A stretch of DNA of 64,000 nt from Bdellovibrionales bacterium. Lineage in GTDB: Bacteria > Bdellovibrionota > Bdellovibrionia > Bdellovibrionales > JAMPXM01. Numbering within the stretch: the first letter of the stretch is position 1; every line of letters starts with the position of its first letter. The stretch covers positions 27,280 to 91,279 of the forward strand of contig JAYUEN010000398.1 in NCBI GenBank assembly GCA_043739185.1. The letters are read 5' to 3'. This document shows positions 27,001 through 45,000 of this stretch, in pieces. Position numbers: made by a program.

Positions 27001-30000
27001 TCTCAGCAAATTCGATTGTGGTCTATGATGCTGTCACTGAAGTGGCGCAGAAAGTTTCAATTGGAACTGCCGACAAGAGAGATATGTTTCATCTCGGTGA
27101 ATCTGAAACAGCAAATCATCTTGTTGATATAGAGTGGTCACAGCATGGTGACTTTCTAATTGCGAAAACCAGCGATAACTTTTTAGAGTATGTGCAAATA
27201 AAACCCCAATTAGACGGTAATAAGTTTGATATCTCCACCCGTCATATTGCAATAGGAAAAAGTGTTAAATTACTGGCATCAAAACTTATAAGTGCAACCG
27301 CAATGGATCACAAAACAACAGATTATATTTTAACGCTTTGGTCGGATGATATCTTTAGAATTTACTCACCGGCACAAACGAGTGGCGGGATCGCGCAAAG
27401 GTTTGAAACACCCCTTCACGGTGCCGCACTCGAAACGGCCCACGAAGAACTTTCAAATCTACTTTCTGAACTGTATGAAACCTATTTTGCCTTTGCCGCG
27501 CGTTTTCTCAATCCGACACAGCAGAATCACTAAGTTAATCGTTCTCGGGCGGTCCATTTTGATGGCCCAATGACGCTTTTATAGCCCAAAACCCCAATAG
27601 AGCTTCTATTGAAAATGACATCAAATAAACTTTCCAATTTGTAATATGAAATGCTATTTATTCTTCTTTGTCGTGAAATTTTGTTTTGCGGTAAAGACAG
27701 GAGAAACGCATGCCATTGAGAGGTCAGGATTTCAAAGCTTTAGTTTTGAGTTTTATTTTTGCATTGTGCTTTTGCCAGCCATTAAACGCCCATCAAAGCC
27801 CAAGCGAAATGCTGCAAATTTCAGATCGCTCGCGAGGCGGGCTATCACAAGGAGTGGTTTGGAAGCTCAATCTCATTTCAAAAGATGCAGGCACTGAGAA
27901 TCAATTTGAATATGAAGTGAAAGTTAAAAATAGCCAGGCAATTGCTAAGTGCCTAGCGCCAGCAAGGTCAAAGAATGAGGTTTATCTGTTCTTGGATCGG
28001 AATCTATGGATGTATCGACCAGGTTTGAGAAAGGCATTGTCGCTATCGACTCGGCAAAAGCTCTCTGGCCAAGCTGCAAATGGAGATATTGCCAATACCA
28101 ATTATGCTCGAGACTATTCTGCGACTTTGCTGGGTGAAGAAGTGATTGATAAAAAGCGGACATTTAAACTGAAGCTAAAAGCAAAGTCGGATGATTTGAC
28201 CTACGATCAAATTATTTATTGGATTAGCCAAGATAAACTATTGGCCGTTAAGGCTGATTTCTTAAGTGTGGATGGTCAAGTTTTTAAAAGCGCAGTTTTT
28301 AATTATGAAAATAGTATTCAAGTTGAAGGTAAAAGTCTTCCGTTTGTGAGTCGAATGTTAATCACGGATGCAAAGAATCCTAAGCTTGTTTCTGAGCTCA
28401 ACTACTCGCAAATTAAAATCGAAAATTTGAGCGATTCTGAATTCAATGTGAATAATCTTTCGAAATGAAGATTTTTTTCGCGATTTTGCTTTTGCTTGCT
28501 CCAAAATTTGCAAGCGGGTTTTTAAAGGCAAAAGGTGATGCGCCATTTTTAAAGTTTGAGACGAGCCTCGATATTATTGGCGGTATTGCCGCTCAAAATA
28601 ATCAAGTGAGCCTGACCAATCCCGATAATCAAATCTTAAATTTACCAACTCAGAGCCTTGACTCTGAATTTAAGCCGATTTTCAAATTCGAACAAAGTCA
28701 ACGTGGTCTGACGCTTTCATTAAAGCCTTATCTTCGGCTTTATGACTCGCAATTCGAATTCAAATCACAAACTCAAAATCGCAAACTTTCAGACTATGGC
28801 TTTTATGAAGCTTATTTAAGATGGGAGCTCTTGAAAGTCATCGATCTAAGTTTTGGTAAAATAAATTCTCAGTGGGGGCCATCTGAACTATTGAGTCCAA
28901 GTCAATTTATGTTTCAGGGGCTTTTGCTTCGACCAGAGCCATTTCAAAGTGTCGCTGGTCAAGAAATGATTCAACTTCAATTTACGCCAAAACAAAATTT
29001 GAGTTTTTGCGTGCAAACTGAACTCAATCCCTCAGGATTGCAGCATACGGATCAAATCAACGCGGCACCTGCAACGTCGCAAGGACGAATTTTATCTAAA
29101 GTAGATTACTCGAGTCGCTCAGGCGACTTTGATTTAGGAGTTGTCATTGGAGAGCAAGGGCAAGTACAGAAGCGAATTATTGTCGGTAGCTTTGCATTTT
29201 TTAATTACAACCCAGATGCTCAAATTTACTATGATGTAAGACACCAAAGAGGTAGTGAAAAGCTTCATATTGCTTCGATTCAAACTCTAGATCAGCCTTT
29301 TTTGACAAGCGACGAGCCCTTCACTTTGGGAGTGCTCGGTCATCGTTATAGTTTTTCAAACGGAATAGAATGGCATATCGAGTATATAGGAAGTGATTTT
29401 GGTCAAAGTATTAGTCAGCGTGAATTTGCATTTAAAACCATAAAATCAAATCCCAATACGCTACAACTTTATCAAATATTTAATGATCCGGTGAGTGCGC
29501 TCCCTGGACAAAACTATATTTACAATTCGCTCAGATGGGACAGTCCGAGCTTCTTAAGTTCACTGTTTTCTGCTTCACATATTTATTTGCGAAGCCTTCA
29601 TTCAATCGGAGATGCTTCAGCCTTTATCAACTTTGCTCTTGAAACGAGTTTATCAGATCATTGGGCACAAAGTCTTGCCATGATTAAAACCATCGGCGAC
29701 AATGAAGCCGAGCTCAATCAAAGTGTCGATTTTTATCTGAGTTACTATCTCAAACGTTCATTTTAAAGTTGGAGTTAAGAATTGTCTGAAATCCTGAAAA
29801 TAGAAAATGTCGAGAAGTCCTATCTGATGGGTGAAACGAAAGTGAAGGCCCTGCAGGGAGTTTGTCTGACTCTGAAACAGGGCGATTTTCATGTCATTCT
29901 AGGAAGTTCAGGCTCGGGTAAGAGTACTCTTTTGCATCTGATTGCAACACTTGATATTCCCGATTCTGGTCGCATCGAATTTATGGGTAGAGACTTAGCT

Positions 30001-42000: not shown

Positions 42001-45000
42001 AGCCACTTGCTATATAGGTATAGGGTTCAATCATCTTTCGTAACGGGTCCGGGCTGCCAAAGTCGCTGGTGATATAAAAGCTTTCGGTTGAGACCAAGGC
42101 AAGATCGTTTGCGGACTGTAAGAGAGGGTGTTCAATGCTTTTAATATATTTGAGTTCATTGGTACTTTGCCAATTGAAAACCTCAAGCGTGGTGTGATGT
42201 TTATCGCGATGATTGATTGCATAAACTAAGATTTGATCCTCAGTTTTAAAGAGATCAATGCCATGCGGATGAAAGTTAAAACTTAATTTGAGCTTTTTGA
42301 TCAAAGGAAAAGCTTGGCGTGTTTTCAGATCATATTGAAAAAGGTCACCTTGAGCCAAATCGCCTCTAAGGTCAGAACTAATCAGCACATGGTCTTCCCC
42401 TGGGATTTGAACCATGTCTTCAGGGCCTTCTATGATTGAGCTTGATTTGCAATCGCCAAATTTAATGTCGCTAATTTCCCTAAAGTATCCGGCATCTGCG
42501 ACGAGGTAGAGAATGTATCCGCTGAGAAACATTAATAAAAGTACGAGAGCCTTAAGCATTTTTACCCTGCTTAAGCTCAAAGGATTTTACGACCGCTGCT
42601 CGTTTAACCTTTTGGCTACTGGTGAGTTCGAGACTCGCTTCTTGAAATTTGAATTCATTTGGCCGTTTGAAAGCTGAAAGACTTTCGCAGAGTGATTTTA
42701 GATCTGCAGTAATTTGGTTTTTCAATTGTGGATTTTTGTAAGCCTCTTGAAAGCGCTCTTGAAGATTGATGATTGCGATGATTTTATCGCCTGCAGCTTG
42801 GGCCGTAATGCTAAAAACACAGACATTTTTAACATAAGGGGAGGTCACTAAAATTTCTTCGACTTCTTCGGGTTGGAGTTTTTTGCCGCTTGATAAAACA
42901 ATCATACTCTTTATTCGGCCCACGACGTAAAGGTATCCATCTGAATCGATGACACCCAAGTCTCCAGTTTTAAACCACCCATCTGCGGTTTTGAGTTCAT
43001 TTGTTAACGCTGAATTTTTAAAATAGGATTCGAAGACATGAGGTCCCTTTGTCCAAATTTCGCCACTTTCTTCATTCTGTTCAGCACTTGAATCTTTCAC
43101 TATTTTCAATTCGACACCAGGTAGGGCTTTTCCGGTTGAGCCATTTCGCGAGGCATTTGGAGTATTGAGACTGATGACCGGCCCCGTTTCAGTTAAGCCA
43201 TAACCATTGTATACAGGCCAGCCAAATGCTTGAAAGAAGTCCGCGGTTTCTTTACTTAAATTAGCTCCACCAGAAATGAAGAACTCAATTGTTTCGCCTA
43301 AGCCAGCCCGAACCTTTTTGAAAAAAAGTATTGCTATTAACTCTGATTTGAGACGTTTGTTGAGAAACAATACGGCCGAAAATAATAATTTTTGAAATTT
43401 CGGCAAAGCTTCGACTTTGGCTAATATTCCATTTCGGATTAACGTAAGGATCAGTGGCACAACAATGAGGCGGCTTACTCTTCTTTCTTTAATAAGTAGA
43501 CTAATACTTTGCGGTGATAAATTTTGCGTGAGACAAACCTCTTGGCCCATCCAAAGAATAGGAAACATTGAGCCCGACAAGCCATAGATGTGATTGAGTG
43601 GCAATATTGAAAGAGCTGCACTGCGACCCGCTTTAATAGGGAAGGCTTGTTTGATCGCATGAATTTGAAAAAATATTGATGAGAAGGAGATATGAACTGC
43701 TTTTTGGTTTCCTGAAGTTCCAGAAGTATAGACAATCAATCGAGATGATTTGTGCGCGTCTGGGTCTTCATTTTGAGAAGCTGAAATCGATTGAACTAAG
43801 ACACGTGGATAATTAGAAATTTGAGAGAATCTAATAATAGATGTCTGCAAACGCTTCACCGGCTTCAGACTATTGGCAAATTGAAATAGGTCGTCTGAAA
43901 CAAATAAATGTGTGGCCTCAAAGTGTTCAAGTAGTTCGGAGGTTTCTAATTGACTGAGTTTAATGTCCAAGATGCAAACGCAGGCACCTTTTAAAAGGCT
44001 AGCAAAGAAATTCTTGAGTAAATCAAGAGAAGTGGGACCTAGAAAGGCGACCCTTGAACTCGCATTAATTCCGGGAATACTTTGCCGACGAAAAAAATCT
44101 TGAATTGAAGTTAAAAAGTCATTTCCGGTAATACTATTTATACTTGGGGCTTGGGTTGAGTCGGTAGGTGAGTTCTCTAAAATACTGAGTATATTTTCTG
44201 AGCCTGCTTGCCGGCAGACATTCTCAAGAAATTCTTTGATGGATTCGGGTGCATGTTCGAGCATAAATAATTGTATATCAATTGTATTTTGAAGAGCTAC
44301 TAAGATAGCTTTGGACTTTTTTTACACAACCAACACCTAGTCGAGATTGAATTCGATAGTACTGAACTCCAAATCATTGATTGGGGTTTTTTCTGCTGGC
44401 CGATGGTTTGGGTGTATGCCTTTATTTGCTGACACACTGAACCCCGAGACCGAAACAAGTAAGACACTTGATTGTCGCTGCTGCCGTCACTGATTTGAAG
44501 CCAAGAGTTGAAGCAGGACCCTTTAAAAAAGTGACAGAGCCAGTACAGCGACTAACTTTTGGTCAGTGGTGCCAATCCAAAAGATTGGTATTGGTTGTGC
44601 ATATATATTCCTCGAATGAAGAAGCTATTTATATTCAAACTCATCTTTGTCCTATGTCTTGCGACCATTTGGTCGAGCAATAGCTTCTCTGCTGATGCCT
44701 GCCCGGCACTTTTCTTCAAATCACCATTTCAAACGAAGAGTACTTTCGATTCAAAAGGTCGGATCAAGATTCATTTGGCCCCGGGAGCTCTCGAGAGATT
44801 GAGCGGCGGCATCTTAAAAAATTTAATTGAGAAATTATCTGTTAAGGGAGCACTGAGCGGAGAATTTTCACCACAGACCCTCAACAAAGAAGTGGTCATG
44901 GGAGACTCTAGACTTCTCAAGCTGCTTGATGCAGAGTTCATGAGACCATTGGCGAAAATATTTCATTCAACTGAGCTGAAGGATTTGCTAGGTCAATTTG

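Follow-up and report, generated by a model that had tools for sequence, protein, structure and literature searches.

Ten genes in the 64,000-nt stretch of Bdellovibrionales DNA analysed here (the window) look built for an exported lipid with a rare N-O ring derived from a fatty acid; the gene set is common to relatives of predatory bacteria and to Serratia and Enterobacter. In the pathway that we favour, and regard as probable if only just, a fatty acyl group and one malonyl unit would yield a beta-amine, N-oxygenation would lead to an N-O ring (an alkyl-isoxazolone or an isoxazolyl-acetate), and the product would be exported. By analogy, the closest precedent would be the isoxazole pathway of the myxofacyclines, an N-oxygenation, and not the carbon chemistry of BesC, PolF and UndA. 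The genome-wide survey's note had proposed an oxidised amino-lipid from the pairing of a heme-oxygenase-like dimetal oxidase (HDO) with an aminotransferase megasynthase; our analysis supports this product and sharpens it to the N-oxygenation precedent. It adds the occurrence in Enterobacterales, a core 137-aa gene, the assignment of a propeller to the true paraoxonases and an indirect link to the oxidase Iso4.

The cluster reduces the isoxazole logic to a single module and assigns the key oxidase to the HDO family, which makes the N-O ring step testable with two or three proteins. Furthermore, it is an orphan pathway in the easily grown Serratia plymuthica and in the Enterobacter cloacae complex, so a search for the product can start at once. 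Two orphan proteins gain a context as well: one is a paraoxonase from bacteria, the other may represent a second branch of the styrene oxide isomerase (SOI) fold.

Organization of the locus

On the gene map of the window, all ten genes lie at 27710..44264 where the note had placed them, acyl ligase, arylesterase-type propeller and LolA/ABC genes included (Table 1). As it had stated, the 295-aa oxidase gene directly precedes the 2093-aa megasynthase gene, from which it is separated by 18 bp. The 433-aa protein is predicted to form an outer-membrane barrel.

Table 1. Genes of the cluster and the divergent intergenic stretch, in window positions
Feature	Position	Strand	Basis and group
LolA-like periplasmic lipid carrier	27710..28468	+	PF17131, E 4e-32; accessory export
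433-aa protein, signal-like N-terminus, C-terminal Phe	28465..29766	+	no Pfam match; accessory export
LolD/MacB-type ABC ATPase	29782..30459	+	domain match; accessory export
FtsX/LolCE-type ABC permease	30469..31782	-	domain match; accessory export
FtsX/MacB-type ABC permease	31786..33177	-	domain match; accessory export
137-aa four-helix membrane-type protein, invariant H56	33196..33609	-	fold and alignment; core
Divergent intergenic stretch, 569 bp	33610..34178	.	type II thioesterase gene here in closest relatives
295-aa HDO-fold dimetal oxidase, Iso4-like	34179..35066	+	fold and ligand alignment; core
2093-aa ACP-KS-AT-ACP-aminotransferase-C megasynthase	35085..41366	+	Pfam domains, intact motifs; core
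Paraoxonase-family six-bladed propeller (arylesterase)	41537..42580	-	PON motifs; near-core
Stand-alone long-chain acyl ligase, CoA-ligase type	42552..44264	-	Pfam/NCBIfam family match

The genes at 25770-27533, 44559-46367 and 46527-47903 have no homologue in the mapped loci and are placed outside the cluster. A search of the divergent stretch for a thioesterase remnant found none (best E 0.024), and scans for promoters (28 versus 35.0) and terminators (20 versus 17.5) stayed at chance level. The GC content of the cluster is barely below that of the genome (40.5% versus 41.8%; 9 of 154 windows are equally low) and the 64-kb window holds no tRNA, so there is no good sign of recent transfer.

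Distribution and locus variants

The megasynthase gene adjoins the HDO gene in all 12 GTDB genomes (Bdellovibrionota) that carry an HDO of the PKS clade. At the level of the order, the earlier figure of 6 in 201 genomes and three families becomes 7 in 301, the present genome included, and four families. The pairing had been noted in Bdellovibrionales families; it is not confined to this order. Serratia plymuthica, S. fonticola and the Enterobacter cloacae complex carry the cluster too, the last of these with one protein variant on 233 contigs. E. coli genomes contain nothing that matches the DNA of the Serratia version, and a plasmid search gave no match. Contigs from RNA runs cover this version in four studies; contigs cannot show transcription, and these are not counted as expression. 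A literature search by title and start of abstract found no description of the cluster, nor did locus tags, with subscription journals largely outside the search; the accessible part of an enterobacterial pangenome paper does not single it out (PMC9125672).

Export genes are interchangeable accessories, with an ABC set in four of the 12 genomes and MMPL in four. A type II thioesterase gene lies beside the HDO gene in 11 of the 12, and P0345 has the two as one fusion; the locus lacks the thioesterase in the window and in G019. Desaturase genes are inserted in G458 (two, together with a cyclopropane synthase gene) and G467, which fits a fatty acyl starter. The only other mapped locus with a desaturase is the high-GC variant L018, where it precedes the HDO gene in the manner of iso3-iso4.

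The oxidase

The model of the 295-aa protein (pLDDT 94.6) is a seven-helix bundle of the HDO fold, which is thus better supported than in the note, where the model reached pLDDT 74. The top VIA match is HrmI (Z 22.5, rmsd 2.6, 220 aligned residues), tied within 1 Z unit with CADD (Z 21.7); FlcD and BesC follow at Z 20.2, RohS is also in the list, and proteins of the TenA/PqqC type, which have this fold too, score Z 15-18. The protein itself has no Pfam or NCBIfam match, PF14518 included. Among its aligned relatives, 50 of 72 match this family (Haem_oxygenas_2) at E<=0.05, with a best value of 5.4e-10, which extends the 5 of 6 (best 3e-4) noted before.

All 115 near-full-length homologues share six residues, E129, H152, E204, H231, H234 and H247, and position 244 is aspartate in 104 and glutamate in 11 of them. 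The survey had listed E, H, E, H-x-x-H-x-E and H-x-E as invariant candidate ligands; this stands for the six residues above and fails for E236 (109/115) and E249 (114/115). In the HDO scheme, core helix 1 provides E and H, core helix 2 provides E and core helix 3 provides H..D-x-x-H, according to the part of PMC13133933 available. Profile alignment to CADD and BesC under this scheme gives H234, D/E244 and H247 as the ligands of the third helix instead of the two proposed motifs, and two of the earlier candidates are probably not ligands. The candidate set E129, H152, E204, H234, D244 and H247 would thus occupy the canonical HDO positions. These features, the seven-helix fold and the E, H, E, H, D, H order, are those of the N-oxygenases HrmI, RohS, SznF and FlcE as well as of CADD, BesC, UndA, PolF and FlcD. 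Compared with these enzymes, the protein carries insertions from E129 to H152 and inside the H234...D244-x-x-H247 stretch, and it is predicted to act on a beta-amino fatty acyl group, either carrier-bound or released.

An extra carboxylate ligand from auxiliary helix 2 marks the N-oxygenases SznF and RohS, and UndA/AetD-type enzymes are recognised by a phenylalanine in the seventh position, in the same accessible text (PMC13133933). Both D94 (115/115) and F92 are invariant here, and either may hold the seventh position; the profile aligns F92 with a CADD phenylalanine. If F92 occupied this position, a substrate carboxylate would be called for, and the type II thioesterase could supply the free acid. 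The oxidase would then act on carbon, like BesC, UndA or PolF, by desaturation, C-C cleavage or formation of a strained N-ring from the freed beta-amino acid. Sequence matches and Foldseek, in which CADD is best (E 4e-5), indeed rank CADD, BesC and PolF first and above HrmI. We nevertheless judge carbon chemistry unlikely: identity is 11-19% to known HDO enzymes and 12-19% to the CADD/BesC/PolF-type ones, against 42% to the Iso4-like relative P0123, and two loci do without the thioesterase.

A branch with SH-aLRT support of 100 splits PKS-adjoining from stand-alone HDOs; in a second tree, the PKS-only group apart from P0123 has support 79. Both are quick trees with SH-aLRT support only. The stand-alone relatives, without any PKS, retain the same ligands.

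An indirect link to Iso4

In the accessible text of the 2021 myxofacycline study (PMC9298251), an A-less ACP-Amt-C module and Iso4, a 280-aa protein with a TenA/PqqC-like model, are proposed to generate an oxime and then the isoxazole. Heterologously, iso2-9 are sufficient, and disruption of iso4 abolishes production; the knock-outs are single crossovers and may be polar. The role of Iso4 is only a proposal there, and the protein is invoked for C-hydroxylation too. The same text presents isoxazole formation in natural products as largely unexplained, leaves the key oxidase cryptic and merely cites the myxadazoles (PMC9298251).

From the published iso4 knock-out primers, two hexapeptides can be read that lie 187 residues apart. 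P0123 matches 9 of these 12 residues with the exact span and in homologous columns. Its score is 54, whereas none of 242 unrelated proteins exceeds 32 and none of the other 220 members of the family exceeds 26. This relative shares all 17 signature residues with the 295-aa protein and lies on the same side of the tree. On this indirect evidence, the window oxidase appears to be an Iso4 homologue.

The two systems have in common fatty-acyl loading, a malonyl KS-AT, an A-less ACP-aminotransferase-C unit with HHxxxDG (Iso6), the Iso4-type oxidase, as judged from the primer-derived peptides, and, in some relatives, a desaturase beside it. They differ in that loading ACP, KS-AT and ACP-Amt-C are on one polypeptide here. 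The iso loader is a FAAL-acyl-CoA dehydrogenase-ACP protein, whereas the ligase of the window is a separate protein of the CoA type and an acyl-CoA dehydrogenase domain is absent. The ten genes include no Iso3-type desaturase, and neither the window nor, in the mapped loci, the neighbourhood of the cluster holds a stand-alone ACP, an A domain or a second reducing PKS-TE module as in Iso7-9. In turn, the paraoxonase and the 137-aa histidine-bearing membrane protein are missing from the iso gene list, so the end product here may differ; lipid exporters are added as well. The hosts are Bdellovibrionota and Enterobacterales, as opposed to myxobacteria for iso1-9.

The megasynthase and chain release

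Pfam places ACP, KS, AT, ACP, class III aminotransferase and condensation (C) domains in this order, in agreement with the note, and finds neither an A domain nor a TE; the chain ends at C. The KS motifs are intact (DTACSS/EAHG/NIGH) and the AT carries GHSLG and GFHS, which we take to be of the malonyl type. The PLP lysine of the aminotransferase lies within YGKILGGG, and this domain matches mycosubtilin MycA (6KFM) at E 7e-139. In the enterobacterial and high-GC versions, a FAAL fused to the megasynthase replaces the stand-alone ligase. The order acyl ligase, ACP, KS, ACP, aminotransferase, C resembles the starters of mycosubtilin (MycA) and of puwainaphycin-type beta-amino fatty acids. Unlike iturin and mycosubtilin, no mapped locus has downstream A-T peptide modules: C is the last domain of the line, which has an HDO as its partner and is followed by the PON and ligase genes or by a reductase gene.

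The C domain keeps its motif (HHLVFDG) and is the most diverged catalytic domain (23-52% identity to relatives), which would fit differing acceptors. The nitrogen could be oxidised and the product stay open-chain, as a fatty acid with a beta-nitro, oxime or N-hydroxy group or as such an acid joined by C to a free amine, an alcohol or a second acyl chain. HrmI and RohS are N-oxygenases, RohS makes a nitro group, and the paraoxonase could yield the same open form from a ring. We give this outcome a small chance, since the mapped loci contain no conserved gene that would supply an acceptor, a TE takes the place of the terminal C in L018, in keeping with a function of C in release, and the products of the nearest precedent are rings.

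Proposed pathway

For the favoured ring-forming pathway, we propose six steps. The ligase would load a fatty acid on the first ACP, and KS-AT would add malonate to give a beta-ketoacyl group on the second. The MycA-type aminotransferase should convert this group into the beta-amine, which the HDO and O2 would turn into a hydroxylamine or oxime, as Iso4 homology and the HDO N-oxygenases suggest. The A-less terminal C domain would then close and release the ring. A plain acyl starter would give a 3-alkyl-isoxazol(id)in-5-one, because the N-OH oxygen can reach only the thioester; a 3-oxoacyl starter or two extensions would give a (5-alkylisoxazol-3-yl)acetate, which is our reading of truncated myxofacycline precursors. 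Finally, the lipid would leave through an ABC or MMPL exporter and the LolA-like carrier. Outside the cytoplasm, the paraoxonase would most likely open the ring, as activation or self-protection. Haem binding is most likely for the 137-aa protein, which would serve the HDO as a membrane reductant or handle the N-O product.

The 137-aa membrane protein

The gene is present in 12 of 12 genomes and strictly co-occurs with the PKS-clade HDO. H56, in helix 2, is invariant in 55 of 55 homologues, and two homologues carry PF26248/DUF8059. The best Foldseek match of the model is SOI, at a weak E of 0.027 (TM 0.73); a search of PDB sequences with the profile gave no match. According to the part of PMC11374702 available, SOI, a trimer with haem b at its interfaces, is likewise a small four-helix protein with a histidine in helix 2, and H56 falls close to the place of its haem ligand H58. 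The differences are 13% identity with no sequence-level match, catalytic asparagine and tyrosine not evidently kept, and a biosynthetic instead of a catabolic context. The note had not recorded that this core protein is membrane-bound in type and may hold a haem site. KinJ, of a different haem family in the text available, was dropped as a comparison.

An SOI-like role as a haem Lewis-acid isomerase would make the N-O ring an intermediate, rearranged or cleaved to an azirine, a nitrile or a Beckmann-type amide, and a Beckmann step is proposed for the myxofacycline pyrimidinols in the accessible part of PMC9298251. We hold this role to be improbable. The VIA comparison with SOI (Z 11.5, rmsd 2.8, 129 aligned) is below 13, weak for a helical bundle, and tied with pieces of haem-copper oxidase and NO reductase. 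Of the SOI catalytic residues N64, D95, N99 and Y103, N99 and Y103 have no evident counterpart at the level of sequence: in alignment A3, which leaves out row L004 of A2 as not a homologue, neither Asn nor Tyr is conserved in helix 3. The gene was not seen in L018; what follows there is a ferric-reductase-like membrane gene, an arrangement that points to electron supply. Beside a radical-SAM-like gene, a distant homologue occurs without any HDO.

Dysidazirine-like azirine lipids are a known compound class, and iron-catalysed conversion of isoxazoles to azirines is known chemistry. In a specific form that we consider a long shot, the line would make a 3-alkyl-isoxazol-5-one lipid, and the SOI-fold haem protein would cleave its N-O bond and so contract it to a 2H-azirine with a long chain, or to a nitrile; the paraoxonase would serve as the off-switch. 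If true, this would give dysidazirine-like azirine lipids a first genetic route, one carried by common strains of Serratia and Enterobacter, and would add to the SOI fold a second activity, a biosynthetic one.

The paraoxonase

The propeller matches PON1 at E 2e-29 and is six-bladed, with an N-terminal hydrophobic anchor and paired cysteines. The PON motifs ED, PHG, NH, ND, NG, DN and HP and the terminal cysteine pair align with PON1, and C44, E54, D55, H106, H124, N158, D159, N215, D259, N260, H273 and C345 are kept in at least 90% of 20 rows. The aligned positions presumably have the roles of their PON1 counterparts (calcium ligands, histidine pair, terminal disulfide). By these motifs, the propeller classes as a true paraoxonase and is predicted to be a calcium-dependent lactonase outside the cytoplasm. 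PON1 prefers lipophilic lactones, and the propeller with its catalytic set might act on an amino-delta-lactone from a 3-hydroxyacyl starter (or a beta-lactam), a ring without an N-O bond that the HDO would tailor elsewhere; this is very improbable, as it accounts neither for the invariant adjacency of HDO and megasynthase nor for the Iso4 link, and no PON adjoins the cluster in L018 and L012. Unlike serum PON1, the window propeller is bacterial and fixed inside a PKS cluster.

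Organization of the locus

The genome-wide survey's note had reported a cluster of ten ORFs; all of them are present at the positions assigned (see table), and the cluster observation is real. Its domain string for the 2093-aa megasynthase is likewise borne out by Pfam: ACP, KS, AT, ACP, class III aminotransferase and condensation (C) domains. Motif inspection found the KS, AT, PLP-lysine and HHxxxDG motifs all intact and a serine in each ACP. The aminotransferase belongs with mycosubtilin MycA (E 7e-139), and enzymes of this type convert the beta-ketoacyl group on a carrier into a beta-aminoacyl group. 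The cluster is not a lipopeptide synthetase. The 295-aa ORF ends 18 bases before the megasynthase start, and its product has no family match of its own in Pfam or NCBIfam.

Coordinates of the features discussed (window positions unless a locus or accession is named)
Feature	Position	Strand	Remarks
Ten-ORF cluster	27710-44264		
Predicted ABC-LolA-barrel export genes	27710-33177		
137-aa gene	33196-33609	-	
295-aa oxidase	34179-35066	+	
Megasynthase	35085-41366	+	
Paraoxonase-type propeller	41537-42580	-	
Mevalonate-pathway operon	6343-11579		FMN-type isomerase-like gene, HMG-CoA reductase, decarboxylase, GHMP kinase; thrS/pheST on either side
Two DUF4423 HTH genes	50774-52599		Convergent
Flanking ORFs	21434-25327, 44559-50791		Many with no Pfam family at E<=0.001
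Variant locus L018	L018:9004-19560		Desaturase, HDO, FAAL-ACP-KS-AT-ACP-aminotransferase-TE, alpha/beta hydrolase, ferric-reductase-like membrane protein
Megasynthase of genome G019	L101:7795-13173		1792 aa; no detectable AT domain, would require an AT in trans
Flavin-dependent halogenase, Bdellovibrio sp. HCB337	L003:17075-18706		Directly after megasynthase; Trp_halogenase, E 9e-128
Insert in G458	L128:3548-8111		Two desaturases, cyclopropane fatty acid synthase and flavoprotein between 137-aa gene and HDO
Insert in G467	L129		Similar size; at least one desaturase
Distant 137-aa homologue, G068	L121:90-1848		Overlaps a gene resembling, by eye, a B12-type radical SAM enzyme
tRNA-Arg(TCT), Serratia	L015:1674-1750, L023:2724-2800		A few kb from the cluster, variable DNA between
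Stand-alone oxidase (example)	NZ_CP044458.1 75108-75965		

The oxidase belongs to the HDO family

Searches with the oxidase found 145 homologues, of which 120 were listed, and clustering at 50% left 83 representatives. At the sequence level, the profile of a 72-row alignment matches CADD (E 2.6e-7) and BesC (E 3.9e-6), and 50 of the 72 rows match Haem_oxygenas_2 at E<=0.05. The structural model (pLDDT 94.6) retrieves CADD, BesC and PolF as top Foldseek hits (E 4e-5 to 6e-4). In VIA it scores 22.5 against HrmI, 21.7 against CADD, 20.2 against FlcD and BesC, 19.1 against PolF, 18.9 against UndA and 17.4 against RohS; TenA/PqqC proteins give about 15 to 18.

The RohS paper describes six metal ligands for heme-oxygenase-like dimetal oxidases (HDOs) and a seventh, a glutamate, in the N-oxygenases SznF and RohS (PMC13133933). 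Alignment with CADD and BesC points to E129, H152, E204, H234, D244 and H247 as candidate ligands. A length filter of 265-330 aa removed five of the 120 listed homologues; in the remaining 115, five candidates are invariant, and the sixth, position 244, is occupied by Asp (104 proteins) or Glu (11). E236 and E249, which had been put forward as invariant, vary among these 115. D94 is invariant in the same set; since the nearby F92 pairs with a CADD phenylalanine, we say only that D94 could be a seventh ligand. By predicted fold and candidate ligand set, the 295-aa protein is assigned to the HDOs. A natural thioesterase-HDO fusion of 535 aa also exists (P0345/P0028).

Relationship to Iso4

In the myxofacycline cluster, loading falls to a FAAL protein and extension to a malonyl KS-AT; an A-less ACP-Amt-C protein carries HHxxxDG, and the oxidase Iso4 is thought by the authors to hydroxylate the amine, giving an oxime that the C domain would then cyclize to an isoxazole. 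For heterologous production iso2-9 are enough, and disrupting iso4 abolishes production (PMC9298251). The supplement presents iso4 as a cryptic 843-bp gene with a TenA/PqqC-like model (PMC9298251). The closest homologue listed for Iso4 is WP_143901697.1. One frame of each of the two iso4 knock-out primers yields a hexapeptide, and the 583-bp amplicon sets their spacing at 187 residues. In 39 of the 72 rows of our alignment, the presumed homologous columns are 187 residues apart. One family protein, the 283-aa P0123, agrees with the peptides at 9 of 12 residues with exactly this spacing; its score of 54 compares with maxima of 26 among the other 220 family proteins and 32 among 242 unrelated proteins of similar length. 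P0123 shows 42% identity to the window oxidase, carries the same 17 signature residues and is placed on the PKS-adjacent side of the tree. Through the primer-derived peptides and P0123, Iso4 appears, indirectly, to be a member of the same HDO family. A more distant member from Pseudomonas japonica (the P0125 cluster) groups loosely with P0123. The window cluster would work like the myxofacycline line, yet it is no member of it: the loader, the desaturase and Iso7-9 are either different or absent.

Distribution in Bdellovibrionota

The oxidase profile matched 7 of 301 genomes of the order, the own genome included, in four families, and strongly matched 9 of 400 other genomes of the phylum; it matched none of the three other genomes of the own genus. 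Overall, 13 distinct other genomes carry the oxidase, 12 in the PKS-adjacent clade and one (G237) of stand-alone type. The oxidase-megasynthase pairing noted by the survey holds in all 12 PKS-clade genomes, the megasynthase following directly. The 137-aa gene is nearby in 12, the ligase and a type II thioesterase in 11 each, and the paraoxonase in nine, the contigs of the other three stopping within or just past the megasynthase; ABC-LolA-barrel and MMPL exporters occur in four each. These counts come from related, non-independent genomes and describe linkage rather than a statistic. Among the 400 genomes sampled, the 137-aa profile has eight strong matches, in exactly those eight genomes whose oxidase belongs to the PKS clade. 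With this profile G237 gave no homologue, and G068 gave a weak one in a genome with no oxidase.

The 137-aa protein and the paraoxonase

The 137-aa protein has 66 homologues, with an invariant R-R-x-x-R-L-x-H56 stretch in 55 of 55. Its model shows four helices (pLDDT 93.6); a simple hydropathy scan places only one segment above the cut-off. In Foldseek, styrene oxide isomerase ranks first (E 0.027, TM 0.73), and in VIA this enzyme (Z 11.5) is level with pieces of haem-copper oxidases and NO reductase. The isomerase binds haem b via H58 and requires N99 and Y103 (PMC11374702). The 137-aa protein has no evident counterpart of N99 or Y103. Because of this tie and these two residues, haem binding by the modelled protein is treated as a lead. 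The propeller matches PON1 (E 2e-29) and retains the metal and histidine motifs, terminal cysteines and N-terminal anchor.

Other hosts and a sister clade

From metagenomes, 80 of 137 oxidase matches were kept. Ten loci that extend far enough encode oxidases 99.6-100% identical to those of Serratia plymuthica, S. fonticola, Enterobacter cloacae, E. asburiae or E. dykesii. All ten combine the oxidase and the 137-aa gene with FAAL-ACP-KS-AT-ACP-aminotransferase-C, a paraoxonase and a 2Fe-2S/FAD/NAD reductase; in most of them an AraC regulator and a FabY-like ketosynthase come first. The tRNA-Arg(TCT) near the Serratia cluster possibly marks an island edge. Photorhabdus, Enterobacillus, Polyangiales and Silvanigrellales also contribute family members.

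Both the 137-aa gene and the paraoxonase are missing from the high-GC locus L018, whose ferric-reductase-like protein scores 28.7 bits against a cut-off of 28. This one locus suggests that TE replaces C for release, the hydrolase replaces the paraoxonase and the membrane reductase replaces the 137-aa protein. However, in enterobacteria the 137-aa gene persists alongside an added soluble reductase. The L018 line likely yields a separate product.

A second oxidase clade (31-38% identity; L027-L085, L109, L111) is stand-alone, adjoins a TetR gene where checked, e.g. in Acinetobacter, and retains all candidate ligands. It is common in Acinetobacter, at as many as three sites in one record, and also occurs on plasmids. 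In quick trees a branch with SH-aLRT 100 separates it from the PKS-adjacent oxidases, and A/V89, F/V207, W/L214 and H/Y231 distinguish the two. These proteins are possibly catabolic or protective N-oxidases.

Proposed pathway and alternatives

We give somewhat better than even chances to an assembly line turning a fatty acyl group into an N-O ring. Loading, malonyl extension and transamination would follow from the gene and domain families; N-oxygenation and then ring closure are suggested by the Iso4 link. If a plain acyl starter is extended by the single KS, the thioester is the only site on which the N-OH oxygen could close, and closure would free a 3-alkyl-isoxazol(id)in-5-one. A 3-oxoacyl starter, which a thioesterase or extra ketosynthase could provide, would give an isoxazolyl-acetate. 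Tails may be varied by desaturases and cyclopropane synthase (G458), at least one desaturase (G467) or a halogenase (L003).

An open-chain N-oxidised lipid would share the N-oxygenation and omit the cyclization proposed for the C domain in the Iso4 system; we regard it as unlikely. Carbon chemistry by the oxidase is similarly improbable. Rearrangement driven by haem, for which the 137-aa protein provides the lead, has a slim chance. A lactone without an N-O bond is the least probable. Cultured hosts carry the cluster, which makes it directly testable. Our literature search returned no description of the cluster; closed-access journals or supplements may contain one.

Related loci in the own genome

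Three further LolA-like genes lie on contigs C24, C429 and C395, two of them sharing the contig with ABC genes. PKS-type clusters are abundant in this genome, with several more type I KS loci on C44, C492, C258, C108 and C49.
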